A stretch of 42,576 nt of DNA from an uncultured Gammaproteobacteria bacterium (GTDB lineage: Bacteria > Patescibacteriota > Patescibacteriia > CAIXNZ01). The DNA lies in the NCBI GenBank assembly GCA_964590345.1, contig CAZPVP010000005.1:1-42576 (forward strand). The letters run 5' to 3'. Under the pieces are notes generated by a model. It ran no database searches. It had not been told where the DNA came from and was given only the letters and a program-made list of their open reading frames with translations. The position numbers were made by a program, and so were the translations under genes. Of the stretch, positions 726-24,482 are shown one piece after another; the stretch's first letter is position 1, and every line of letters begins with the position of its first letter.

Positions 726-1076
726 TCAAAAAAGCACGCAATTGCGTGTTTTTAATTTTCTAAATATTTTTTTATTCTTATCTTCTCTTTGGTTATCGCC
801 TTTAAAATATAATTGAATAAACTCAATTAATCCCTTATCAATATAATGGGCATAAATTAAACGCAAGGTATTGCCTTTTAAATAACGGCAGAAAAAACGA
901 GCCTTAACAATTAACAATTGCTCATTTTTATGTAAAACAGCAAAATTTTTATTGGCACAAACATCAATAAAAGGGATATTTTTCTTAAAAGTATTCAAAT
1001 CATCAGCTAACGATTTATATTTCTTGGCTAATTTTTTACAACCTTTATCAAATTCCTTAATTGAGTTAAAGTTCAT
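726..1076 (-). CDS. RelE/ParE-superfamily-like toxin, partner of the upstream Panacea antitoxin
   Basis: 116 aa. Overlaps the upstream gene by 11 nt. Shows the toxin-like pattern KKLAKKYKSL...LRLIYAHY...IEFIQLYFKGD. Confidence 0.65.
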   Translation of the reverse strand: MNFNSIKEFDKGCKKLAKKYKSLADDLNTFKKNIPFIDVCANKNFAVLHKNEQLLIVKARFFCRYLKGNTLRLIYAHYIDKGLIEFIQLYFKGDNQREDKNKKIFRKLKTRNCVLF

Positions 1077-1845
1077 CTCGGTGTTCCTTCACCGAATACT
1101 TATCATCACGATAAAAAACACTTTCATAATCAATAACTTCGCCATTTTCATGACTTTTCCAGGGTATATCATTATGAGAGTATTCTGTTAATTCTTTAGC
1201 GCTTTTATTGGCCAAACGATTAATCACGTCGTCAATATGCGTAATTTCTCTTGCTGAAAGCCGGCTTAAATCAGGCTTTCTGCGTGGCAAGTATTTTTTT
1301 TGTTCATATTGAAAATATTTACTTTTAACTTTTTCCAATTCACCTTTATCAGTCATTTCATCAACAATTTCTTTTTCAAAAGCTACCGGAGTCGGGCCAT
1401 AATGATTTTTAATATATTTGGCGCCAATTAATTGCTCCTCGTATTTTTCATAATAATCAAAATCAATAAAATACAATAATTTATAAATGGCTGTTTCGCC
1501 AATATTAGGCAGTGCCCCGACTTTTTCTAAAATGTAAAGCAAAACCTCTTTAAATTTTTTTAAATTCTGCTGAGGCACGCTAATTCTGATTTCCGGTTTA
1601 GCTGATTTTTTAGGCTTTGACTTGCTTAATTTAACTGAAATTTTACTGGATTTCTCTGCTAAAAAATTTTCCAAAGTCAAACCAAAAATCTCGGCTAATT
1701 TTTTAGCCTGTTCAATGGTTAAGTCTGCCTTGCCATCTTCTATCTGCTTATAAGTGGGCCTGGACACATCAATCTTTTGGGCTAAATATTGCTGAGAGAG
1801 CTTGTTTTCTTGCCTTAACTTTTTTATAAAATTATTAAGCGCCAT
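1066..1845 (-). CDS. XRE-family HTH fused to a DUF4065/Panacea (SocA-like) antitoxin domain
   Basis: N-terminal part LSQQYLAQKIDVSRPTYKQIEDGK (HTH_3-like). C-terminal part KLLYFIDFDYYEKYEEQLIGAKYIKNHYGPTP, typical of DUF4065. Confidence 0.85.
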   Translation of the reverse strand: MALNNFIKKLRQENKLSQQYLAQKIDVSRPTYKQIEDGKADLTIEQAKKLAEIFGLTLENFLAEKSSKISVKLSKSKPKKSAKPEIRISVPQQNLKKFKEVLLYILEKVGALPNIGETAIYKLLYFIDFDYYEKYEEQLIGAKYIKNHYGPTPVAFEKEIVDEMTDKGELEKVKSKYFQYEQKKYLPRRKPDLSRLSAREITHIDDVINRLANKSAKELTEYSHNDIPWKSHENGEVIDYESVFYRDDKYSVKEHRDEL

Positions 1846-2702: not shown

Positions 2703-4208
2703 GTGCCTAATTCAATAAAATTTTGTAATTTTTGTTCAAAATTATCTTTTCCAAATTTAATTAAAATTGCACCAGATGGATTTTATGTTTTAGGTGCAAA
2801 TAGATATGATGGTTATGGTACTGTAACATTTTTTGAAAAACATCCATGGAGTAAACCAAGAACAAAAAAACACCTCAATCAATTACTTGATAGAGGCATT
2901 TCTTTTGTCCCTGGAAGGACGGCAGACCCTTCATCCGTCCGCCAAATCCTTTTAAAAAAGGCAGGCGTCGTGCCAAGCAGAGCCGTGATAGAACTTTCTG
3001 GCGTCAAGGACTCTACTCCTATTATATCACCCCCTGAAAAACTTGTCAAACCCGAACCACGATTTGTTAAAAAAGAAACCGCTAAAGATGTAAGTAATAA
3101 AAATATAGAAAAAAGATTAAATGAAATAGATGAAAAAAGAAGTGAAGTAAAATCAAGAATATTGCAAATAGCTACAGCTCCTAAAAAAACCATTGACGGG
3201 ACTGCTTTAACAAAAGAGCAAATATCTGATTTTTTTCAAAAACAAATAGCCAAAAGACCTGAGTTATTAGCTCCTGAAGATATGGGAAAATGGGAAGATC
3301 CAAATTTTTATGTGAGATTAGTTGGTAATGCTATACCTACGATAGCAGGAGCTATAGTAGCAGGTGCAATAACAGGGCCGATTGGTGGCGTTGCTTTTAC
3401 TGTTGGCGTAGAAGGCGGGTTTGCTTATCAAGAAGCAATTAATGCTGGTGCTTCGGCTGATCAAGCTAAAATTATTGCGACCAAAGTTGGTGCTATAAAT
3501 GGCTCATTGGAATATTTGCCTATTGGCAGAGTATTAAATAAAGTTAAGGGAGGCAGACAATTAAAAGGTAATATATTAAGACGTATTATTAAAGAAATAG
3601 TAGCACAAGGCGGAACAGAAGCGTCTACTGAAGCTATGCAAGAAATAGTTAATAATGCTGTTTTAATGGAAATAGATGAAAATAGAGAGTTATTTGATAA
3701 TGTATTAGAAGCAGCAGTAGGTGGTGGACTTGTTGGTATACTAATGGGTGGTGGTGGTCAGATTATAAGTAAGCAACAGCCTATTTCTCAACCTACACAA
3801 CCACAAATACAACCTATGCAAGAACCAACTATAATGTTAGATGAATTAGATTTTGCTGGTGTTGAACCTCAAAAAGCTAAAGAAATTTATGCTGATATTA
3901 AAGATTTGCCAATTAATGAACAAAGAAATAAAATTAAAGAATTAATTGATCAAGGTGTAATAGATAAAACTATATTTAAAAAAATGAAAGCGATTAGAGC
4001 AGGAGAAAAATTAGAGGGATTGGATTATGATATTAAAACATTACCGATAAAACAAAAAGCTCAATATATTTGGGATAAATTACAAGAATTTAATGGTGAT
4101 GAAAATGCTGAAAAAGAATATTTGAAAGAACTTAAAGAAAAGGGTATTTTGTCAAAAAATACGATGAAAGAATTAAAAAAGATTAGATTTGAAGAAAGAG
4201 GCTATTAA
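2703..4208 (+). CDS. Orphan 501-aa protein with a central Gly/Ala-rich hydrophobic region. Possibly of mobile-element or phage origin.
   Basis: Long ORF with coding-like composition. Contains AIPTIAGAIVAGAITGPIGGVAFTVGVEGG and GGTEASTEAMQEI segments. The start (GTG at 2703) is uncertain. Confidence 0.65.
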   Translation: MPNSIKFCNFCSKLSFPNLIKIAPDGFYVLGANRYDGYGTVTFFEKHPWSKPRTKKHLNQLLDRGISFVPGRTADPSSVRQILLKKAGVVPSRAVIELSGVKDSTPIISPPEKLVKPEPRFVKKETAKDVSNKNIEKRLNEIDEKRSEVKSRILQIATAPKKTIDGTALTKEQISDFFQKQIAKRPELLAPEDMGKWEDPNFYVRLVGNAIPTIAGAIVAGAITGPIGGVAFTVGVEGGFAYQEAINAGASADQAKIIATKVGAINGSLEYLPIGRVLNKVKGGRQLKGNILRRIIKEIVAQGGTEASTEAMQEIVNNAVLMEIDENRELFDNVLEAAVGGGLVGILMGGGGQIISKQQPISQPTQPQIQPMQEPTIMLDELDFAGVEPQKAKEIYADIKDLPINEQRNKIKELIDQGVIDKTIFKKMKAIRAGEKLEGLDYDIKTLPIKQKAQYIWDKLQEFNGDENAEKEYLKELKEKGILSKNTMKELKKIRFEERGY

Positions 4209-4447: not shown

Positions 4448-4513
4448 ATAATTGTAATTTAGGTAATTTAGCTATTTTCTGGTTATCCATTCGTCATAAT
4501 GATTAACCAGACC

Positions 4514-7432
4514 AATCTACAAAAGTAGAAATTTAATAGGTGTATTTGAGTTCCTTGTATTATCAGCCCACCCAATATCTACAAAAGTAGAAATTTAATA
4601 GGTGTATTTGAGCATGGTAATCGTCTTTCATGATAGTAGATCTACAAAAGTAGAAATTTAATAGGTGTATTTGAGAGTTTGCCATACAATGGACTATTGA
4701 ATCTACAAAAGTAGAAATTTAATAGGTGTATTTGAGTAAATCCTTATCAAATTTAATGCCATGATCTACAAAAGTAGAAATTTAATAGGTGTATTTGAGC
4801 TAACACAAAAATGATGAAAGAGACAATATCTACAAAAGTAGAAATTTAATAGGTGTATTTGAGTATTTCCATGACATTGAACCCCATGTATCTACAAAAG
4901 TAGAAATTTAATAGGTGTATTTGAGGAAAGAAATATGGTGGAAATACATGGCATCTACAAAAGTAGAAATTTAATAGGTGTATTTGAGTAACTGTTGCTA
5001 TAAAGGAATTATAATCTACAAAAGTAGAAATTTAATAGGTGTATTTGAGCATTAAAATGTGGATGAAAGAGACAATATCTACAAAAGTAGAAATTTAATA
5101 GGTGTATTTGAGTATGACTGATTTTTTAAACTGGATTTATCTACAAAAGTAGAAATTTAATAGGTGTATTTGAGAAATACCGCAGGATTTGAAAACCTTA
5201 GCATCTACAAAAGTAGAAATTTAATAGGTGTATTTGAGTAAGGCGGAAGTAATAGATGAGGTTAATCTACAAAAGTAGAAATTTAATAGGTGTATTTGAG
5301 TAGTAACTTGAACATCACCTGCCGCAAATCTACAAAAGTAGAAATTTAATAGGTGTATTTGAGAATCCCAGCCCCTAAAATCCCTGCCTAATCTACAAAA
5401 GTAGAAATTTAATAGGTGTATTTGAGGGGTAAGGTTAAGTAGTTATCTTTACATCTACAAAAGTAGAAATTTAATAGGTGTATTTGAGTAGTGTCCTTGC
5501 TATTTTTGTTGAGTTATCTACAAAAGTAGAAATTTAATAGGTGTATTTGAGATATAGTTGATATGCAGACATATATATCTACAAAAGTAGAAATTTAATA
5601 GGTGTATTTGAGAGCAAAACCAACAAAAGAAAATATAAATCTACAAAAGTAGAAATTTAATAGGTGTATTTGAGAAAAGTATCATACCCGCTACCGCAAT
5701 CATCTACAAAAGTAGAAATTTAATAGGTGTATTTGAGTCGTGCTGCTACTGAGGCTGCTAAAATCTACAAAAGTAGAAATTTAATAGGTGTATTTGAGGT
5801 TAGCTTTTAGAAGAATGAATGGTATCTACAAAAGTAGAAATTTAATAGGTGTATTTGAGCCATATTTTTAGCAGATTAATTCATTAATATCTACAAAAGT
5901 AGAAATTTAATAGGTGTATTTGAGGAACCACAAACATCTGTGAAGAATGACAATCTACAAAAGTAGAAATTTAATAGGTGTATTTGAGCTGTTAAACTAA
6001 CAGAGCCAGCGCCATATCTACAAAAGTAGAAATTTAATAGGTGTATTTGAGCACGATACATTATTTTGTATTAAGTTTATCTACAAAAGTAGAAATTTAA
6101 TAGGTGTATTTGAGTAAGGCAACGGCAAGAATTAGTAGGAATATCTACAAAAGTAGAAATTTAATAGGTGTATTTGAGGTCTCTGCCCCTAAAGTCTCTG
6201 CCCAATCTACAAAAGTAGAAATTTAATAGGTGTATTTGAGAAGAATTATATCAAAAAGTCATTAAATCTACAAAAGTAGAAATTTAATAGGTGTATTTGA
6301 GCAACAAAAACCACAAGGGGAGTTATCTATCTACAAAAGTAGAAATTTAATAGGTGTATTTGAGCTTACCCCAAGATAGTTGAGCAAGAATCTACAAAAG
6401 TAGAAATTTAATAGGTGTATTTGAGTCAGAAGTTGTCGCTGACAAATTAAATCTACAAAAGTAGAAATTTAATAGGTGTATTTGAGAAATACACATACAC
6501 CTGAGGGTCGTATCTACAAAAGTAGAAATTTAATAGGTGTATTTGAGCGGTAATCACGCGTTAGACAACGCTATATCTACAAAAGTAGAAATTTAATAGG
6601 TGTATTTGAGACATGAAACACACACTAAGATGGTTCCATCTACAAAAGTAGAAATTTAATAGGTGTATTTGAGTTGAAAGTTTATCTAAACATCAAATAT
6701 CTACAAAAGTAGAAATTTAATAGGTGTATTTGAGACAAAAAGAGATTAAAAGGAAACAATAATCTACAAAAGTAGAAATTTAATAGGTGTATTTGAGTTC
6801 AAATCAAAAAGTAAGCTTAGATCAGGCACGATCTACAAAAGTAGAAATTTAATAGGTGTATTTGAGCATGTGGGGACAATGGGTTAGTCTTTATCTACAA
6901 AAGTAGAAATTTAATAGGTGTATTTGAGTAATAAATAAGCTGAAGTATTGGATACATCTACAAAAGTAGAAATTTAATAGGTGTATTTGAGGGTTCGCTG
7001 CTAAATTGAATATAACATCTACAAAAGTAGAAATTTAATAGGTGTATTTGAGCTTTTTCACAGGTAGACCCCAAAATAATATCTACAAAAGTAGAAATTT
7101 AATAGGTGTATTTGAGTCGTGATATGAACGGAGTGGATTTAGAATCTACAAAAGTAGAAATTTAATAGGTGTATTTGAGTTATATGGAGCAAACAAACGG
7201 CTTTTAATCTACAAAAGTAGAAATTTAATAGGTGTATTTGAGAAGATGCTGATGTTAATGCTCAGAAAAATCTACAAAAGTAGAAATTTAATAGGTGTAT
7301 TTGAGTTGTTTTAGTGTGTTTTGCATACTTGTGATCTACAAAAGTAGAAATTTAATAGGTGTATTTGAGTAACACTGTCAGCGTCTTGAACCAATTATCT
7401 ACAAAAGTAGAAATTTAATAGGTGTATTTGAG
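4514..7432 (-). CRISPR. Type V-A CRISPR array: 47 identical 36-bp repeats and 46 spacers of about 25-33 bp
   Basis: The plus-strand repeat is ATCTACAAAAGTAGAAATTTAATAGGTGTATTTGAG. On the minus strand it reads CTCAAATACACCTATTAAATTTCTACTTTTGTAGAT, which ends in the Cas12a crRNA handle (stem TCTAC/GTAGA). Confidence 0.98.
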
Positions 7433-7598
7433 TCTTAAAATAGCTAATTTAAGCGAAAAAGATACAAATAATGCACATGTGCAATTACGACTTTTTCGCT
7501 TAAAATAGACAAATTTAAAATATAAGGACTTAGGTTTTGTATTTCTTAAAATATACCCACTGAAATTTCCACTTTTATTATCTTGTAAAAGTGCCAAA
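7433..7598 (-). promoter_or_regulatory. CRISPR leader between cas2 and the first repeat
   Basis: AT-rich 166 bp. It carries a 13-bp inverted repeat (7449-7461/7491-7503) enclosing the palindrome TGCACATGTGCA (7472-7483), and a direct repeat CTTAAAATAG at 7434 and 7499. Confidence 0.6.
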
Positions 7599-7877
7599 TT
7601 AAATATAAATAAGATCTGTGTCATCATGTTTTGCATAACCATAATATTTTATTTTTTTCTTGCATCCCTCACATATACGAAAAATTACAATACTGTCAGA
7701 ATCTGAAAAATGTTTTTTATACTTTAATTCTACCTCAATTAAAATATTTTGCAATACCCTTTGGCTATCTTTTATCTTAAAAACAGAATATTGTAGGCGA
7801 TGACCATATTTTGATAAAAATTTGGCAAATTTAGTTCTTTTCATGTCATTGCTAAAATCATAAGATACTATAAGCAT
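7599..7877 (-). CDS. cas2: CRISPR-associated endoribonuclease Cas2
   Basis: 92 aa. MLIVSYDFSNDMKRTKFAKFLSKYGHRLQYSVFKI matches the Cas2 N-terminal pattern. The position next to cas1 and the array agrees. Confidence 0.9.
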   Translation of the reverse strand: MLIVSYDFSNDMKRTKFAKFLSKYGHRLQYSVFKIKDSQRVLQNILIEVELKYKKHFSDSDSIVIFRICEGCKKKIKYYGYAKHDDTDLIYI

Positions 7878-7890
7878 AAATCAAAAAAAA

Positions 7891-8859
7891 TTAACGAATT
7901 ATAAAATTTTTTATTTCCCCTTCTTCATTTAAAATAAAATAATAATGCGCTCTAATATAATTATAAATATTCTCTTTCTGCCCTAAAACCTCCTTCATGA
8001 AAAATTTAATATATTTAGAACTTTTTTTATATGATAAATAATACTGTCCCTTTCTATGACCAAAATCTTTTTCATCAAAAATGTTTAATTTATGAAGCTT
8101 AACAAGCGCTTTATCAATTACACACCTAAAAGGTTCCATCATATCACAAGAGAAAGATTTTCTTTGAAAATATAATTGATGGTATATTCCCTTGTAAGTA
8201 TCAAATCCATATACTCTCAATAATGAATCTACAAAATTAAAAAGATAACTATAACCCATATCTAAAAGAATATTATTTTCGTCATTTTTCCCACGAGGTA
8301 TTCTTCTATACCAACTAATTCTAGAAAAATAAGCACGAAAACATTCTTTACTCATACTTCCCTCTAATCCTCTTAGAGATTCCTTATTTTTAGCACCTCT
8401 AATTTTCTTCGTCATAATGCTTTTATAAACCATTCTTTTTTTACCGCCGATTTCTTGAATATTTGCTCCACGTAATAAAGATAATTGATTAATTAATTTA
8501 TTTTCAACAATTTTTTTTGCTATAAAAAGGCATTTATCCTCAGACAAATTATATTGTTTCTGCCTTAAAAGGTAATTACCTTCAGCATATGATTGAATAC
8601 TAGCATAACACTCCAAATTATTTCTAAGCAAAAAAATTGAAGCTCCGGTTCTAACTAATTTTTGGATTAATTTACTGGTAATAGTAATGTCACCAATAAT
8701 AAAAACAATTAATAATCTATGTATCGGGACTTTGCTATAATTCTTATTGTTTTTCAAAACTAAAATATTTTCGTTGTTAAGCTTAATGTTGCATTCTTTA
8801 AAAGAAGAAGCATCTAAGCAAAAAATTTGTTTTTCTTTAAAATCATTGGGTTGGATCAT
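7891..8859 (-). CDS. cas1: CRISPR-associated integrase Cas1
   Basis: 322 aa with Cas1-like motifs NILLDMGYSYLFN, GIYHQ and DMMEPFRCVID. Synteny is cas4-cas1-cas2. Confidence 0.9.
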   Translation of the reverse strand: MIQPNDFKEKQIFCLDASSFKECNIKLNNENILVLKNNKNYSKVPIHRLLIVFIIGDITITSKLIQKLVRTGASIFLLRNNLECYASIQSYAEGNYLLRQKQYNLSEDKCLFIAKKIVENKLINQLSLLRGANIQEIGGKKRMVYKSIMTKKIRGAKNKESLRGLEGSMSKECFRAYFSRISWYRRIPRGKNDENNILLDMGYSYLFNFVDSLLRVYGFDTYKGIYHQLYFQRKSFSCDMMEPFRCVIDKALVKLHKLNIFDEKDFGHRKGQYYLSYKKSSKYIKFFMKEVLGQKENIYNYIRAHYYFILNEEGEIKNFIIR

Positions 8860-8868
8860 AATTTTTAA

Positions 8869-9408
8869 TTAACATAATTCACCATAAATGCACTGTTGGC
8901 ATTTTTTATTATTTAATTTTTTTTTACTGGTTAATAAGTTAAATCTGCGAATATTTTTTAATGAATTATTAAATTTTTTAATAACCTCGCAATTAAAAAC
9001 CACGGAGTATTTCTTATTATCAACTAAAGAATATAATGTTGCTTTTTTTACCTCATATCCCATTTCTTCAAGGCATACCTTTTGAGCATAAAGTTGAAAT
9101 AAATAACCATCATATATTTTTTTAATTTTTCTTTTTCTCTCAATTAACTCTTTCTTTGCGAAGTCATAAATATCAACTTTACCGATCAAACCATATTTAT
9201 CAGAAAAAATTTCTATTCCCTGCACAACATTCTTTTTTGTTGAATATTGCCGATTGTCAATATTTTTATGCGCAATATTACCAGCAATTTGATTTTCTCC
9301 ATTATAATGCCACTTATCAAAATCTTCATAAACACTATGAAAATAAAGCGAACGTGGACAAAAAATAAAATCATTAAGTTTTGAAATTTGAATATAATCG
9401 TAATACAT
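8869..9408 (-). CDS. cas4: CRISPR-associated exonuclease Cas4
   Basis: 179 aa. N-terminal Cys (FIFCPRSLYF), C-terminal CQQCIYGELC, and nuclease core DIYD...ELIERKRK. Confidence 0.85.
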   Translation of the reverse strand: MYYDYIQISKLNDFIFCPRSLYFHSVYEDFDKWHYNGENQIAGNIAHKNIDNRQYSTKKNVVQGIEIFSDKYGLIGKVDIYDFAKKELIERKRKIKKIYDGYLFQLYAQKVCLEEMGYEVKKATLYSLVDNKKYSVVFNCEVIKKFNNSLKNIRRFNLLTSKKKLNNKKCQQCIYGELC

Positions 9409-9431
9409 AATAATCTTAATTTAACATAAAA

Positions 9432-9460
9432 ATATATCATTAAACTTATGACTTTGTCAA
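9432..9460 (-). promoter_or_regulatory. Candidate promoter of the cas4-cas1-cas2 operon
   Basis: On the minus strand: TTGACA, then N15, then TGaTATATT. Confidence 0.45.
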
Positions 9461-9488
9461 TTCCGTTTCAGTAAATTTTATCTAATAG

Positions 9489-9530
9489 AAAACTCCCCCT
9501 TTAAATCTTGAAAATCTTCGGGGGAGTTTT
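9489..9530 (-). terminator. Hairpin downstream of cas12a, a possible attenuating terminator
   Basis: AAAACTCCCCC ... GGGGGAGTTTT: an 11-bp perfect stem with a 20-nt loop. Confidence 0.5.
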
Positions 9531-9554
9531 ATTATAAAGACAATAACTATTTAT

Positions 9555-12500
9555 TTAAGATACAAATTGATCCCATTCATCCTGAGTAATCAACAAATCA
9601 CCATTTTCCATTTTGCTTAAATCACTGAATTTTTTCTTAAATTTGGAAATTTTATCTAAAACAAGGATTCCCTTGCGAGCAATATTATAAGCTCCATTAG
9701 CATCGCCATTAAATACAAAAGGTTCCCTGCCGGAATATTTACTTTTTAAATTCTTTAAATTACTTTCAGAATGGAAATGGCATGAAGGGCATTCAATAAA
9801 ATCGTAGCATTTTTCTTTTATTTCATTTCCACTGTTGTCTTTCTCTACTATAGCATTACGAAGCTGTAAAATAAGACGGATATTATGAATAATCGGTTTA
9901 TAAAAAGAGCCATTCCCCAAATTTTTCCCCTGAATTTGCTTAATTATATTTTCTTTGTTAATTTCTATATTATTTTTTTTGAATATATTTTTTAATTCCT
10001 CATTGGGATATATCCATTTTGTTTCCCCACCGCGGTTATCTTTTCTTCTTAAATATTGCAAACGAGTAACATCCGAATAAAAAACAAATTCGTCCCTTTT
10101 TTCTTTATTGTCAAAAAGAGTAAATCCTGATTTGCTTTTACTGGTCTTTTTCTTTTCTTCTATCACATCTTTTCTTCTGTAAGTAAATCTGAACCTGTCT
10201 TTTTCTTTTTCATAAATGATATCAAATTTTTCAATAAATTGTTTATTCTTTGATCTAATATCTATTTTTGTAGGGATGTTCTTACGAAACCCGCAAACAG
10301 GACATATTGCCGAGGTATAGCTGGCAGGAACATAAAAAATAAAGCCGCATTGTCTGTAAATATCCTTAAAATTATTAATTTTTGGAGTAAGCTGAAAAGC
10401 TTTTGTGGCACTACCTACTTGTTCAAAATCCCGATCCTTAAAAACCAAATAATTAAGCTTTTTTGCCAACGCTAATTCTAAATTTTGATAAACTTGTTTT
10501 TCTATTGCAAATCTGCCCCGTTTAAAGCCCGCGTTCAAATCTTCAAAAATTATAATAGCATTATATTCAATCATTAAATTACAAATTTTCTTTACCAATT
10601 GAGAAATATAGCCTTTTTTCATTTCTTTTATTTTACCAATGATCTGCCAATTTTTACGTGCCTCGGCCCTCTTTTCTTCTAATTCAGATAATTTTTTATG
10701 ATAATCAGTGCCATTGATTTCATTAAATGATCTAGTCTCCAATATATTCTTTCTTTGATCAATAACCGAATAATACGCCAAATGTTTTTCACCTCTATCA
10801 ATACCGATAATATTAACATCTTTATTATTAGCCAAATACTCCCTAACACTTACACTAAAAGAATCGGCTTTGCCTTTGTACTTATTATTATCTTTTTCAA
10901 CTTCATCTCTGGCAAAGTTCAAAGTTAAAGGACAATGAAAAAAAACTTTATTTTCTGTATATCTTTTTTTATTGATAACCTCTACTGAAGTTTTTCTTTT
11001 TTTATCTACCTCCTTATCAAGAGAAGCTTTCCTAAAAAATACTTCTGCCTGACCATTTAATTTTATAATCGGATTATTTTGATTTCTTTCACTGAAAATC
11101 TCTTCCCAAAAAAAAGTATGTAAATTCTTTTTCCCTTCAGCCTTTGAATTAAAATCTTTATTGTGTATTTCAAATAAAAATAATTCCCCGCTATTATTCT
11201 TTTCTTTTATATATTTTTCAGAAATATTTTCAAACCAAATTTTCCAAGTATTTTTGGATAAATCATTATAAAATTCTCCAATATTTTTTTTATATTGTTT
11301 TGTTGGCTTTATATGATTAAAACTAAACAAACTCCAGCTAGGATGCTTAGGAATACATTCCTTAAAAAAATCAATAATTTTATGCATATTTTTTATTGAG
11401 AAAGCAGGGGAATCAATTTTAAATGATCCTGAGCGATAAATATCCAACAGCTCTTTATTTGGACGATATTCCTTAATACCTTTATTCGAAAATATTCCTT
11501 TAGGAAAATCTCTTTTGGGGTCAGCCATTAATTTATAAACCATTTTTTTATAGAATCTCTTATCATTTAAATTACCTTTTTGATATTTATCTAAAAAAAT
11601 ATCATTATGATTTTTTTTCATAATACCCAAATAATATTTACCTTTCTTTTTTAAAATTACACCTAAATTATTTTGTTCTTTATTTTTATCCCATCCATCG
11701 AGGAGTGTACCACATTCAAAATTTAACTTAATTTTATCTTCGCTATAAGGCTTTTGGGTAAGATAATTTCTAAAGACATTATAATACTGCCAGGTATGTA
11801 CATTTTGATAATAATCATTAAAACGATCATAAAATAAGCTATCTTCATCTATACTATCGGGATTCCATAATCTTTCTTTTCCTTTTTCCAAAGAAAAATA
11901 TTTTATCATTTGATAGATAGATAATGAACTTTCGCAATAATCACGAATAATCTCTTTTTGTCTCAAAATATTTTTATAAAGTTTATCTTTTTTAATTATC
12001 GCTTCAATATCTTGTAATACTTCTTCATATCCTTTCTTTTCTTTATTGCCTTTAAAATTTTCGTTAAACTCGCTCTGCCAAATTTTAAGAAAAATTATAT
12101 AATTATCAGACTCTTTACCGCTAAAAATATCCTTATATTTATCACGAAAAATATCATTTCTATCCTTAATTTCAATATTTTGTAATTTTTCTTTTAACTC
12201 AGCTATTGAAACAAAATCAGGCAATTTCTTTTGGCCTTTTTCTATGAATAAACTTCTGATAAAATTCCAATCAGCAAACCACTTATTGGATATTTGATTA
12301 ATAAACCTTCCCGCAACATATATATTGGAAATATTAAAATTGCCGCGATTTGCTAATTGATCTTCAATAAATTCATTAAATAAATCAAATGCTTTGGGAT
12401 TTTGCAATTTATTTTCTTTTATAAAATCATTCATAACTTTAAAGACCTCATTATCTTGAGTAATTTCTATAAAACCGGATTGTTCTATGTCTCTGGCTGT

Positions 12501-13382
12501 CCTCTCTCCCATAATCTGCTTAAAAAGTATTTTAAAAAAAGGCAAATCATTTTTATTTTTTGTTTTTTGACGCTTAAAATTGACTTTTTTGTTTATTTCG
12601 GCAATTAAATCATTATATTGATCTATTTGCCCCTGACTAAGACAATTATTAAAATATTTTAAATTAAAAATATCTTTTTGCACCTTATTGAATATATCAT
12701 CATGCTTCCCTTTATATTTATTTTCAAATTGTTTTTGATTTTCTAAAAATTTCGGCAGATTCTCATTAACTATTCTTGTCGGAATTGCGGTTGAAGTACC
12801 GTCATCTTTATAAAAATTCTTTCTGGTTTGATGAAAGCCGTTAAAATAAGTACTAAATTTATTAAAACTTTCAAAAATACTTTTATCATCAATTACCGCT
12901 TCCGGATATTTATATTTTAAAAAATCAAAAATTTCTTTTTTAAAAAATAAATCCAACTTTTTAAGTTTTCTTACGTTAGTTTTTAGTTCCTCCTTTCTTA
13001 TTTTTTTTAAATATTTATTTTTCCATTCTTCTAATATTTTTTCAAAATTTATTAAAATATTTTTTCTGATTTTTTTAGCTTCGTCTTCTATTTTTTTCTT
13101 ATTTGAATTACTTTTTTCATTTTTATATTTAAAATAAGCTTGCTCATAATCCTTTAACAATTTACTACTAATTTCCGTCTTATGCAGTGCATCATCAATA
13201 AATTCCCTATGTAATTTATCAAACCAATTTTTAACTTCTTTATAATTTTTAGACAAGATTTCGTCTTTTTTAAAAACTTTATTATCTTCAAGCATTTGGG
13301 GAGTATTATATTTTGGTATAAGTTCAAAGCGCAAAGTTTTAGAAAGTTCATAAAGGTTAGTAAACTTGTTTAAATTTCGCAT
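9555..13382 (-). CDS. cas12a: Cas12a (Cpf1) type V-A effector nuclease, 1275 aa
   Basis: N-terminus FTNLYELSKTLRFELIP. RuvC-I IGIDRGEKHLAY, RuvC-II IIIFEDLN, RuvC-III NGDANGAYNIARKG, and YTSAICPVCGF. Adjacent cas4/cas1/cas2 and a Cas12a-type repeat support the call. Confidence 0.95.
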   Translation of the reverse strand: MRNLNKFTNLYELSKTLRFELIPKYNTPQMLEDNKVFKKDEILSKNYKEVKNWFDKLHREFIDDALHKTEISSKLLKDYEQAYFKYKNEKSNSNKKKIEDEAKKIRKNILINFEKILEEWKNKYLKKIRKEELKTNVRKLKKLDLFFKKEIFDFLKYKYPEAVIDDKSIFESFNKFSTYFNGFHQTRKNFYKDDGTSTAIPTRIVNENLPKFLENQKQFENKYKGKHDDIFNKVQKDIFNLKYFNNCLSQGQIDQYNDLIAEINKKVNFKRQKTKNKNDLPFFKILFKQIMGERTARDIEQSGFIEITQDNEVFKVMNDFIKENKLQNPKAFDLFNEFIEDQLANRGNFNISNIYVAGRFINQISNKWFADWNFIRSLFIEKGQKKLPDFVSIAELKEKLQNIEIKDRNDIFRDKYKDIFSGKESDNYIIFLKIWQSEFNENFKGNKEKKGYEEVLQDIEAIIKKDKLYKNILRQKEIIRDYCESSLSIYQMIKYFSLEKGKERLWNPDSIDEDSLFYDRFNDYYQNVHTWQYYNVFRNYLTQKPYSEDKIKLNFECGTLLDGWDKNKEQNNLGVILKKKGKYYLGIMKKNHNDIFLDKYQKGNLNDKRFYKKMVYKLMADPKRDFPKGIFSNKGIKEYRPNKELLDIYRSGSFKIDSPAFSIKNMHKIIDFFKECIPKHPSWSLFSFNHIKPTKQYKKNIGEFYNDLSKNTWKIWFENISEKYIKEKNNSGELFLFEIHNKDFNSKAEGKKNLHTFFWEEIFSERNQNNPIIKLNGQAEVFFRKASLDKEVDKKRKTSVEVINKKRYTENKVFFHCPLTLNFARDEVEKDNNKYKGKADSFSVSVREYLANNKDVNIIGIDRGEKHLAYYSVIDQRKNILETRSFNEINGTDYHKKLSELEEKRAEARKNWQIIGKIKEMKKGYISQLVKKICNLMIEYNAIIIFEDLNAGFKRGRFAIEKQVYQNLELALAKKLNYLVFKDRDFEQVGSATKAFQLTPKINNFKDIYRQCGFIFYVPASYTSAICPVCGFRKNIPTKIDIRSKNKQFIEKFDIIYEKEKDRFRFTYRRKDVIEEKKKTSKSKSGFTLFDNKEKRDEFVFYSDVTRLQYLRRKDNRGGETKWIYPNEELKNIFKKNNIEINKENIIKQIQGKNLGNGSFYKPIIHNIRLILQLRNAIVEKDNSGNEIKEKCYDFIECPSCHFHSESNLKNLKSKYSGREPFVFNGDANGAYNIARKGILVLDKISKFKKKFSDLSKMENGDLLITQDEWDQFVS

Positions 13383-13416
13383 ATTTTTAAAATTAAATTA
13401 TTAATATTTTCAATAA

Positions 13417-13575
13417 TTATATCGCAATAGTAAAGCTAGTCTGAATATCTTGCTCTCGTTTTGACCAGCCATCTTGGGTCTTAAATTTATTAACCAAATC
13501 TTGAATCTTCTTTTTTAATTTTGCCTCTTCCAATTCAACATTGGGCGTGTTTAAAATTATTTTCTTTTTATCCAT
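13417..13575 (-). CDS. 52-codon ORF directly upstream of cas12a (MDKKKIILNTPNVELEEAKLKKKIQDLVNKFKTQDGWSKREQDIQTSFTIAI)
   Basis: Found by hand, since it is below the ORF-track cutoff. It ends 34 nt before the cas12a start. A promoter-like element at 13599-13627 lies upstream. There is no SD. Confidence 0.3.
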   Translation of the reverse strand: MDKKKIILNTPNVELEEAKLKKKIQDLVNKFKTQDGWSKREQDIQTSFTIAI

Positions 13576-13598
13576 AAATTTATTGTAAAATTACTCTA

Positions 13599-13627
13599 AT
13601 TTTAACGCCATTATCGCTTAAAGTCAA
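13599..13627 (-). promoter_or_regulatory. Candidate promoter of the small-ORF/cas12a unit
   Basis: On the minus strand: TTGACT, then N17, then TAAAAT. Confidence 0.45.
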
Positions 13628-13702
13628 TCTAAATTTTAATAAAAATTTAATTTAAAAGAAGTGATTCGTGAATCACTCCTTCATTTGAGATATTTAATTT
13701 TT

Positions 13703-18436: not shown

Positions 18437-19057
18437 TTAATCTTTTTTACGAATTGCCCAAAAATAATAAAGCGAGGTCACAGTCAACCAAACATTTAAA
18501 ACTAAAAAGACAGGATTTAAAATATTAAAACTCACTAAATAACTTATTAAAGCAACATGAGCGATTGTTTTAAAATATGGGATGTCAGGTGTTACGCTTA
18601 TTAACCAGTCACTTGGCTGACCCGCTCTCTTTTTAATTGTGGCTAATAATTGCGTAACCAATTCTATTAAAATATTATAAGCTAAAAGCCAAGCCAAAGC
18701 TGCTTGTAAATAAATAAAACCAACAATAACAAAAGCATACATAAAATTATCAACCACTGAATCCAAAAATCTGCCTTTATCACTTTGTATATTTAGATAA
18801 CGAGCCAAGGCACCATCAATTAGATCTAAAAACCAAAATAAAAGATAAAGAACTAAAACCCCCCATAAATTTTCTAAATAAAAATAACAAGCTAAAGGAA
18901 AAACAAAAAGCAAACGAAAAGAAGTGATTTTATTGGGCGTAATTTTTAATTTAGCCAATAATTTTAATAAGGGCAAAAAAATAATTGCCCGCCATTTATA
19001 AGAAAGTTTTTTGAATTTTTGATAACTTTTTTCAAAACCCATGGATTTAATAATCAA
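18437..19057 (-). CDS. CDP-alcohol phosphatidyltransferase family protein
   Basis: DLIDGALARYLNIQSDKGRFLDSVVD fits D-x2-DG-x2-AR-x8-G-x3-D-x3-D. Multiple TM segments. Confidence 0.9.
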   Translation of the reverse strand: MIIKSMGFEKSYQKFKKLSYKWRAIIFLPLLKLLAKLKITPNKITSFRLLFVFPLACYFYLENLWGVLVLYLLFWFLDLIDGALARYLNIQSDKGRFLDSVVDNFMYAFVIVGFIYLQAALAWLLAYNILIELVTQLLATIKKRAGQPSDWLISVTPDIPYFKTIAHVALISYLVSFNILNPVFLVLNVWLTVTSLYYFWAIRKKD

Positions 19058-19550: not shown

Positions 19551-20090
19551 TTACCAAGCAACTTTTTTAATTTTTAATTTATAACCTAGCCAATTAGTTA
19601 TTAGAGGTAAAAATGGAGAAATAACAATTATCAATATAGTAATGGCCCAGCTGGGGATATAAACTAAATGAATCAGGACCAAAGCGCCTAAAAAATCCAG
19701 CTGGTCCCAGGGGAACCATTTTGCGCCTGGTTTTAAATTTTGCCGGCGTTTAATAAAACTTTTGACTGCATCGCCTAAAATCACGCCAAAACCAAATAAA
19801 AATCCAAAAACTAAACAAGAAATGCGCGCATAATCCAAGATGCTTAATTGTTTAAAAAAAGTAAAATTGTATAAATACTTCTGCAGTAAAGCTACTAAAA
19901 TACCTGCTATTATTGCAGCGATCAGCCCTCGCCAGGTTTTATTTTTGCCTAATATTGGTTTGCCTTTATAAGTTTTATTAAAATCAATTGGTAAAGCTAA
20001 TTTATTGCCAAAAATTTTTGTTGCAAAAACTGGTGCCATATTAGCAAAATAAGCTGGCAGCATAAAATATAGTGCTTGAAGTATAATCAT
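19551..20090 (-). CDS. CarS-like (DUF46, CDP-archaeol synthase family) membrane protein
   Basis: PIDFNKTYKGKPILGKNKTWRG, GDAVKSFIKRR, DQLDFL and a C-terminal KLKIKKVAW. These parallel the conserved blocks of archaeal CarS as I recall them. Confidence 0.8.
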   Translation of the reverse strand: MIILQALYFMLPAYFANMAPVFATKIFGNKLALPIDFNKTYKGKPILGKNKTWRGLIAAIIAGILVALLQKYLYNFTFFKQLSILDYARISCLVFGFLFGFGVILGDAVKSFIKRRQNLKPGAKWFPWDQLDFLGALVLIHLVYIPSWAITILIIVISPFLPLITNWLGYKLKIKKVAW

Positions 20091-23265: not shown

Positions 23266-23967
23266 TCACTCCCAATTTTTAACCTGTAAAGCTTCTTGCG
23301 CAGCTTCAACTTGCGCTTCCTGTTTCGAAGATCCCTCGCCCTTAGCGACCAAATCTTTTTTCAAAAAAACTCCCACAATAAAATGTTTGGCATGATCAGG
23401 TCCTGATTCTTCTAAAACTTTATAAACCGGCGTAACGCCTACTTTATCCTGGGCAATTTCCTGAAAACGGCTTTTAGGATCCTGATATAATTTATTTTCC
23501 AAAATTTCAGGTAATTTCACCATAATGTTATCCATAATAAATTCTTGCGATACTTCATAGCCTTTATCTAAATAAATTGCCCCAATAATTGCCTCCATTG
23601 CATTAGCCAAAATATATTGCCGTGCTTTTGATTCTTTATCTCTTGCTTCACCTTTACTTAAATAAAGATATTCTTCAATCCCTAGCTCTCTAGCGATTTC
23701 AGAAAGCATATTAGAATTAACCAAAGAAGCTCGCCAGTTGGTTAATTCACCTTCAGGATTGGAATAATTTTTATACAGATATTCAGTCACAACTAATTCC
23801 AAAACCGCATCTCCTAAAAATTCTAAACGCTCGTTATGGTCAAGTTCAAATTCTGGATGTTCATTTAAATAAGAACGGTGAACAACCGCTTGCTTAATTA
23901 AATCTTTATTTGTAAACTTCACTCCTATTTTTTTTTCTAATTTTGAAAAACCTTTCATAGGTTTCAA
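23266..23967 (-). CDS. rnc: Ribonuclease III
   Basis: Signature ERLEFLGDAVLELVVTEYLY plus a C-terminal dsRBD. Confidence 0.95.
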   Translation of the reverse strand: MKPMKGFSKLEKKIGVKFTNKDLIKQAVVHRSYLNEHPEFELDHNERLEFLGDAVLELVVTEYLYKNYSNPEGELTNWRASLVNSNMLSEIARELGIEEYLYLSKGEARDKESKARQYILANAMEAIIGAIYLDKGYEVSQEFIMDNIMVKLPEILENKLYQDPKSRFQEIAQDKVGVTPVYKVLEESGPDHAKHFIVGVFLKKDLVAKGEGSSKQEAQVEAAQEALQVKNWE

Positions 23968-24047: not shown

Positions 24048-24482
24048 TTACTCTTTTATTTCTCCTTTTTTTTCCATCTCTTTATAAATCGCACCTAAAA
24101 CACCGTTAACAAACTTGCCCGATGATTCTCCGCCATAAGTTTTGGCAACTTCTATTGCCTCATTAATCGCCACCTTAGATGGAATATCAGGGTCAAATTT
24201 TAACTCAAAAATGCCTATTCTTAAAATATTGCGATCAACAATAGTAATTTGCTCCAATGGCCATTCAGTTGCATATTTCTTGATCAATTCATCAATTTCT
24301 TTTTTATTTTTCAAAACTCCTTCAATTAAATGCTTAGCAAATCCCTCATCATCAAAACTCGGCGCAAATTCTTCTAAATTGCGCTCTAAAATTTCATCAA
24401 GATTTTTCTCTTGACTATTATTAAAATCCCATTGATAAAGTGTTTGCATCGCTATAGTACGTGAAAGATGACGATTAGCCAT
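24048..24482 (-). CDS. nusB: Transcription antitermination factor NusB
   Basis: [13 protein letters not shown]... and [26 protein letters not shown]. Confidence 0.9.

Follow-up and report, generated by a model that had tools for sequence, protein, structure and literature searches.

The type V-A CRISPR (clustered regularly interspaced short palindromic repeat) system of Francisella novicida U112 provides the best point of comparison for the Cas12a locus that we describe here, which lies on contig CAZPVP010000005.1 of assembly GCA_964590345.1; throughout, 'the window' denotes the whole 42,576-nucleotide stretch that was analysed. In F. novicida, the effector FnCas12a cuts precursor CRISPR RNA (pre-crRNA) in its WED domain, with H843 acting as the acid, K852 as the stabiliser of the transition state and K869 as the base (PMC11127173). 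As for adaptation in the same species, residue D7 of Cas2 is needed for full-site integration, and at most 3 nt of the leader matter in vitro (PMC13034035). Cas12a has been known in the candidate phyla radiation (CPR) since the first Cpf1 paper of 2015 (PMC6509639), and of 354 Parcubacteria, Microgenomates and related genomes, 1.4% were reported to carry CRISPR (PMC4742961). In PMC7862264, citing Stringer et al. 2020, boxA elements are described as preceding natural CRISPR arrays and raising the expression of distal spacers.

We find that the minus strand of positions 4515-13382 of the window holds a complete type V-A locus, in the order cas12a-cas4-cas1-cas2, leader and array. An earlier reading of this DNA from its letters alone (the sequence-only reading) had proposed that this type V-A locus is complete, its adaptation module included, and that it sits in a CPR-like genome, and the family models, the genes, the array and the host all agree with it. 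Judging from these features, we consider it highly likely that the best overall explanation is an intact Cas12a operon and array with the steps of transcription, interference and adaptation that we set out below, and the locus is very probably functional.

The effector and the adaptation genes

The four genes of the operon are placed as follows:

13382..9555, minus strand: cas12a (cpf1), 1275 aa, with domains REC1, REC2, PI, RuvC and Nuc
9408..8869, minus strand: cas4, 179 aa; TIGR04328 (type V Cas4), 208.8 bits (cut-off 70)
8859..7891, minus strand: cas1, 322 aa; TIGR00287, 138.7 bits (cut-off 71.7); Pfam Cas_Cas1, E = 8e-51
7877..7599, minus strand: cas2, 92 aa; TIGR01573, 52.3 bits (cut-off 24.5)

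The 1275-aa protein falls within Cas12a. It scores 830.7 bits against the NCBIfam equivalog model for Cas12a/Cpf1 (TIGR04330; cut-off 300) and 1171.8 bits against the PADLOC Cas12a profile PDLC01231, which covers aa 1-1274. The Pfam models for REC1, REC2, PI, RuvC_1 and NUC of Cas12a are all matched above their gathering scores, with no match to HNH, and all solved Cas12a structures are matched as well, the best being the reconstructed ancestor ReChb (2e-189), followed by FnCas12a (about 1e-170). The peptides SKTLRFELIP, IGIDRGE, FEDLN and GDANGAYN are all present in the translation. Using structures 5mga and 8y0b for the numbering of FnCas12a, we mapped the following residues by alignment, including two lysines that contact the protospacer-adjacent motif (PAM):

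D862, RuvC: FnCas12a D917
E947, RuvC: FnCas12a E1006
D1227, RuvC: FnCas12a D1255
R1175, Nuc: FnCas12a R1218
K568, PAM contact: FnCas12a K613
K628, PAM contact: FnCas12a K671

The three RuvC motifs are thus intact, as the sequence-only reading had stated, with no misalignment of the catalytic residues. Since the profile, domain, structure and residue evidence agree, its anatomy of the effector is correct. Its description of the protein as compact does not hold up: the length of 1275 aa compares with a median of 1309 among 115 relatives, 17 of which are shorter.

The word 'divergent', which had also been applied to this protein, is apt in a relative sense at most. Its nearest known relatives, the metagenomic proteins P0002 and P0003, are 65-66% identical to it, and from there a continuum of homologues extends down to about 35% identity. 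The protein itself has no entry in the contig index. Public metagenomes hold hundreds more Cas12a proteins, several of them labelled as belonging to the Patescibacteria group, and the CPR examples go back to 2015. Four related loci (L001, L002, L010 and L011) have the operon order found in the window; one of them, L002, has a Cas12a that is 66% identical and a repeat that departs from the one in the window at 2 of 36 positions.

One further feature of the effector lies in its Nuc region:

9780..10304, minus strand: segment with two CxxC motifs, CPVC (aa 1027-1030) and CPSC (aa 1198-1201)

The two motifs suggest a retained four-cysteine zinc ribbon. The aligned FnCas12a reads SKICPVTGF at the first site and has no second CxxC. 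CxxC pairs occur in the closest relatives (e.g. P0002-P0032), not in P0033-P0047, and the segment also gives weak side-matches to the Cas12e and Cas12f profiles.

The adaptation proteins likewise retain their characteristic residues. Cas4 has the RecB-type motifs D79, E90-x-K92 and QxxxY together with cysteines C17, C170, C173 and C179. Cas1, which scores 282.6 against the type-V-specific model TIGR04329, slightly below its cut-off of 300, has the motifs GLEG, GIYHQ and DMMEPFR, and Cas2 retains its N-terminal aspartate, D7.

The repeat-spacer array

7432..4515, minus strand: CRISPR array, 47 repeats and 46 spacers, transcribed in the direction of the cas genes
7396..7370, minus strand: spacer 1, the newest by position
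4576..4551, minus strand: spacer 46

Tandem Repeats Finder and exact matching together identify 47 identical copies of the 36-nt repeat CTCAAATACACCTATTAAATTTCTACTTTTGTAGAT. The terminal repeat is identical to the other 46 copies, in agreement with the earlier statement that the array is homogeneous to its leader-distal end. The 46 spacers between the repeats are 25-33 nt long, with a mode of 27 (19 of the 46), and each is unique. A search of both strands for the opening 19 nt of the repeat gives 47 occurrences, all within the array, where 0.05 would be expected by chance.

All 47 repeats end in AATTTCTACTTTTGTAGAT, where the canonical handle is AAUUUCUACUUUUGUAGAU, and the minimum-free-energy fold of this 3' end is a 5-bp stem, UCUAC/GUAGA. 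We searched both strands of the window for a trans-activating crRNA (tracrRNA) or anti-repeat, allowing up to 3 mismatches to those same 19 nt, and recovered the 47 array copies alone, in keeping with the earlier claim that no tracrRNA is needed. The sole solitary stem-loop of the repeat type, with one mismatch, lies at about 30700, distant from the locus.

The span quoted by the sequence-only reading, 4514-13627, needs adjustment at both ends: the array ends at 4515, so its start was off by one, and 13627 marks a promoter-like hexamer and no gene boundary. We also note an 8-bp inverted repeat, TCTGGTTA...TAACCAGA, right after the last repeat (about 4480-4511, minus strand); it is without a U-tract, and the terminator scan made no call there.

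The leader

7433..7598, minus strand: leader, 166 nt, from the cas2 stop codon to repeat 1
7583..7594, minus strand: boxA-like motif GCACTTTTACAA, starting 4 nt past the cas2 stop codon
7501..7450, minus strand: leader hairpin AAGCGAAAAAG-UC-(apical stem-loop)-UUUGUAU-CUUUUUCGCUU, ending 17 nt before repeat 1

The leader is conserved in the four related loci named above, with a mean column identity of 80% in the alignment with L002 and L001. Two elements stand out within it. The first is a 12-mer, GCACUUUUACAA in its RNA form, that matches the E. coli boxA GCTCTTTAACAA at 10 of 12 positions. In a wider alignment of 17 loci, nearly all related leaders carry, at the same place after cas2, a match of 8-11 out of 12 positions to the consensus GCUCUUUAACAA. 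The window encodes NusB as well (24048-24482, minus strand; PF01029, E = 1e-41), in a gene that adjoins the one for RNase III (23266-23967).

The second element is a hairpin whose basal stem of 11 bp leads through a conserved asymmetric internal loop to an apical stem that varies. A scan with the pattern of the basal stem, in which the four apical pairs were left unconstrained and one genome was kept per species, returned 15 loci, of which 12 are labelled as belonging to the Patescibacteria group (Paceibacterota, Moraniibacteriota, Saccharibacteria, Jacksonbacteria); the rest are labelled 'bacterium' or, once, Bdellovibrionales. The hairpin thereby recurs in at least 19 other type V-A loci, namely L001, L002, L010, L011 and L013-L027, which are mostly Patescibacteria and bring the number with the window to 20. 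The distance from hairpin to repeat 1 is 17 nt in all 20, and the arrays of the scan loci bear the Cas12a handle.

The pairing of the hairpin is maintained across these loci. When 19 sequences are aligned with MAFFT, blind to structure, all 285 of the 285 pair cells hold standard pairs, compared to 90.9% in shuffles, and the covariation score is 0.29, compared to 0.09. Of the four apical pairs, three vary at both partners, and no pair is lost. The search pattern permits any combination at the S-S position within the basal stem, and the bases there are complementary in 19 of 19 sequences. Such wobbles as occur are solely G-U when read on the crRNA-sense strand; one pair shows them in 14 of 19 sequences, and A-C cells are absent. 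This points to pairing of the crRNA-sense strand, most simply as RNA. Each of the 19 sequences folds to the same two-tier shape, and the internal loop has the conserved bases UC / UUUGYAU. No Rfam family matches the leader, none falling below E = 3.9. The most likely role of the hairpin is either that of an RNA element in the leader transcript (for stability, antitermination or processing) or that of a landmark for integration, which the fixed distance to repeat 1 would also suit.

A second hairpin further upstream in the leader (about 7509-7540, 5' arm CAAAACC) was seen by eye in many loci; the MAFFT alignment gave no consensus structure for it, and we do not regard it as established. As for the loci found by the scan, the repeat of L021 (Candidatus Jacksonbacteria RIFCSPLOWO2_02_FULL_44_20), GCCAAATACCTCTATAAAATTTCTACTTTTGTAGAT, may be that of one of the Parcubacteria Cpf1 loci in the original survey. 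If so, the leader hairpin would also adjoin a published ortholog.

The WED-domain loop and pre-crRNA processing

10959..11030, minus strand: short WED-domain loop, aa 785-808, KASLDKEVDKKRKTSVEVINK-KRY, by alignment with FnCas12a

It is important to ask whether the residues that cut pre-crRNA in FnCas12a have counterparts here. Between the motifs FFR and KRY, both conserved, lie 21 aa in the window protein, KASLDKEVDKKRKTSVEVINK, with no histidine among them; in FnCas12a there are 37. In the alignment, H843 and K852 of FnCas12a fall in a 16-residue deletion, and K869 aligns with N804, which K805 and K806 directly follow. All solved Cas12a proteins are 13-50 residues longer in this loop by alignment offsets, and none has the short form; Lb2Cas12a (8h9d), considered as a possible short-loop structure, was rejected with about 20 extra residues by the same measure.

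Among the 120 best homologues, 99 of which have a parsable loop, the short form occurs in 74, and 41 of those 74 have no histidine in it. Other short-loop relatives place a histidine anew, either directly before KRY (NH-KRY) or in an S-H-E/D motif seven residues upstream. In most of the relatives that lack histidine a lysine adjoins the K869 position, and two of them, P0003 and P0004, adjoin multi-spacer arrays (in L002 and L001). Because so many homologues share it, the short loop without histidine is not the decay of a single gene. We treat the WED RNase triad as a property of the characterised members and not as a definition of the Cas12a family.

On the alignment, then, the chemistry of any pre-crRNA cutting by the window protein cannot be that of the published H843/K852/K869 triad, and K805 and K806, beside the K869 position, are the best candidates for it. 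The sequence-only reading had held that the repeat forms a self-processing handle, so that no tracrRNA is needed. The canonical handle and the lack of an anti-repeat in the window support one part of this claim; since the canonical triad is not conserved, self-processing is something that we infer from the handle.

Spacer targets

Two pairs of spacers resemble each other. Spacers 20 (6204-6179) and 33 (5390-5364) share 20 of 26 positions, and spacers 38 (5076-5050) and 42 (4827-4800) share their first 15 nt. Each pair may represent variants of one target, which fits repeated encounters with related invaders. We found no self-targeting within the window, where the longest exact match of a spacer is 14 nt.

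The sequence-only reading had looked to the spacers as a means of deriving the PAM. A search with all 46 against 50,697 phage records gave two matches, both at chance level (E = 6), and scans of IMG/VR with the patterns of spacers 20/33, 1, 14, 28, 34 and 5 gave none. The 38/42 pattern had four matches in IMG/VR, roughly as many as chance would give, and all four were rejected as evidence; the best of them, in L007, agrees with spacer 42 at 24 of 28 positions and has the flank ATTA. Also rejected was L009, from a metagenome scan with the 20/33 pattern, in which the 20 searched bases are all that match.

The productive case is spacer 23. Its 22 PAM-proximal nt, out of 27, match two overlapping IMG/VR contigs (L028, 7755-7776, and L029, 1080-1101). 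The protospacer has the 5' flank CTTG and lies inside a frame that stays open for more than 999 codons. Repeated motifs in the product of this open reading frame (ORF), such as AAPAYSFTSSTNSGMYY, appear tail-fibre-like. The flank is compatible with a PAM of the TTV type; a single partial match cannot define one.

Proposed mechanism and alternative explanations

No terminator is detectable between the operon and the leader-array. Taking these elements together, we propose that transcription of the array would begin upstream and run on from the cas operon, probably in one transcript with its genes. The boxA-like site after the last coding gene would recruit NusB/NusE, with the effect that transcription would not terminate across the 2.9-kb untranslated array. 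Cas12a would then bind the handle of each repeat, and crRNAs, expected to be about 40-44 nt long with the 5' end AAUUUCUAC, would direct RuvC cleavage of DNA beside a T-rich 5' PAM. Finally, Cas4-Cas1-Cas2 would insert spacers of 25-28 nt at repeat 1.

13383..13702, minus strand: intergenic region upstream of cas12a, with two promoter-like candidate sites

A number of observations weigh against an intact and working locus of this kind. The candidate promoters upstream of cas12a are TTGACT-17-TAAAAT at 13627..13599 and TTCAGA-18-TATAAT at 13445..13416; promoter-like sites in this region number 3, compared to 2.5 +/- 1.6 in shuffled sequence. The terminator scan returned nothing above the shuffled background, so that neither kind of signal stands out. 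The boxA-like motif is a putative boxA, by resemblance and position only. The deletion of H843 and K852, and the longer loops of all solved Cas12a proteins, belong on the same side. Lastly, among 46 spacers there is one non-chance match, which is partial and lies in a virus with a GC content of 49%, compared to 31% in the host. One might also ask whether the system is intact but idle, that is, a long inherited array with no ongoing acquisition. In favour of such idleness, almost no protospacers were found, and scans of genome and metagenome collections did not recover the window repeat, nor any close sister array that would show spacer turnover. However, few targets are to be expected because few CPR phages are in the databases; moreover, the four cas genes are open with their catalytic motifs, the repeats are identical in 47 of 47 copies including the last, and the leader is conserved. 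We regard an idle system as rather improbable, and ongoing acquisition as plausible at most.

Two further alternatives accept a real type V-A system and concern how its parts work. The Cas12a of this lineage might cut no pre-crRNA with a canonical WED site, relying instead on a rebuilt lysine-only site or on a host RNase. The deleted H843 and K852, the replacement of K869 by N804, the lack of histidine here and in 41 of 74 short-loop relatives and its new positions in others all point this way, as does the RNase III gene nearby. Yet the handle is fully canonical and the same in all 47 copies, and there is no anti-repeat with which to form double-stranded RNA for RNase III. The relatives without histidine retain multi-spacer arrays, and most have a lysine next to the K869 position; metal-independent RNases without histidine, such as some Cas6 enzymes, do exist. 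On balance we find this alternative unlikely. Much the same holds for the view that the leader hairpin acts as DNA, either as a cruciform or as a palindrome bound by protein, and so places Cas1-Cas2(-Cas4) at repeat 1. The invariant distance of 17 nt across 20 loci and the conserved internal-loop bases would suit this role, and so would the repeats themselves, whose 5' ends vary among arrays and which in the window lack the TCTA palindrome preferred by F. novicida Cas1. On the other hand, the apical stem covaries freely in sequence, which points to base-pairing itself being maintained and not a sequence recognised by a protein. The G-U wobbles, confined to the sense strand without A-C cells, would leave mismatches on the opposite strand, and F. 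novicida needs at most 3 nt of leader in vitro (PMC13034035). A hairpin acting at the DNA level is thus doubtful in our judgement, and we continue to favour the intact operon and array as set out above.

A broader proposal can be made tentatively, as one that may well prove wrong: that a mostly Patescibacteria lineage of type V-A systems shares a leader module that has not been described, consisting of the boxA-like site followed by a covarying hairpin 17 nt from repeat 1, together with effectors that, in the loci where they could be read, mostly have the short WED loop, often with no histidine. If the hairpin serves as an RNA or DNA signal in transcription of the array, processing of the first repeat or integration on the leader side, or if pre-crRNA is cut by lysines only or not at all, then crRNA biogenesis, adaptation or both would differ in this lineage from the F. 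novicida paradigm.

Host and genomic context

The window also encodes gyrA, nusB, rnc, two tRNAs, lipid and metal-transport genes and an S1-domain protein that is probably ribosomal protein S1. Because these housekeeping genes share the window, the locus is chromosomal, and an origin in a mobile element was rejected given such flanks. GyrA shares 82-87% identity with proteins that carry the labels Candidatus Buchananbacteria, Uhrbacteria, Falkowbacteria and Patescibacteria group; the host is therefore a CPR/Patescibacteria bacterium, in keeping with the 'CPR-like genome' of the sequence-only reading.

Three neighbouring features are recorded for completeness:

1066-1845, minus strand: protein with a helix-turn-helix and a SocA/Panacea domain (antitoxin-like, PanA type), overlapping a 116-aa ORF of unknown family at 726-1076, minus strand
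2703-4208, plus strand: 501-aa ORF that runs convergently towards the array's trailer end and matches no family in Pfam, NCBIfam or PADLOC
19551-20090, minus strand: CarS-like protein (CDP-archaeol synthase family), here in a bacterial genome, near a CDP-alcohol phosphatidyltransferase at 18437-19057, minus strand

The PanA-type protein and the 116-aa ORF may form a toxin-antitoxin pair.

Comparison with known systems

The locus is not new in kind. It adds one Cas12a ortholog, whose nearest known relative is 66% identical, and 46 spacers from a host group poor in CRISPR, which are useful for linking hosts and phages in CPR. The non-canonical RNase loop and the leader with boxA-like site and hairpin raise it slightly above the routine. 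Such a leader may explain the full expression of a 2.9-kb untranslated array, or else how integration is targeted in type V-A repeats without the palindrome of the F. novicida type. Moreover, a large natural group of Cas12a proteins without the H/K/K triad bears on their usability for multiplexed arrays.

Compared with the F. novicida U112 system (FnCas12a; structures 5mga, 5ng6 and 6i1k), the window has the same order, from cas12a through cas4, cas1 and cas2 to the array; its 36-nt repeat likewise ends in the handle UCUAC-N4-GUAGAU, its spacers are about 27 nt long and it has no tracrRNA. The two effectors also agree in the RuvC D/E/D residues, in the Nuc arginine and in the PAM lysines K613/K671. 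The differences are a WED loop 16 aa shorter and without histidine, the CxxC...CxxC of the Nuc region, a repeat 5' end without the TCTA palindrome, and a leader with a boxA-like site and a hairpin at -17, where F. novicida needs at most 3 nt in vitro.

The CRISPR leaders with boxA and Nus factors offer a second comparison. As there, a boxA-like 12-mer stands upstream of a long untranslated array in the window, whose host encodes NusB. However, the cases named in PMC7862264 are E. coli, Coxiella and Legionella, none of them CPR, and in the window the motif comes directly after the cas2 stop codon and is followed by the conserved two-tier hairpin.

The closest likeness is to the metagenomic relatives. 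P0002 (labelled Candidatus Muiribacteriota) and P0003 and P0004 (from the JGI metagenome loci L002 and L001) share the short WED loop and 60-66% identity over their full length, but P0002 carries a histidine (DSHEIVNKKRY) where the window Cas12a has valine. Leaving aside P0002, whose contig is 4.9 kb long, the two loci have other spacers and shorter arrays, of at least 12-13 repeats on their contigs, whereas their operon order and leader hairpin are the same as in the window.

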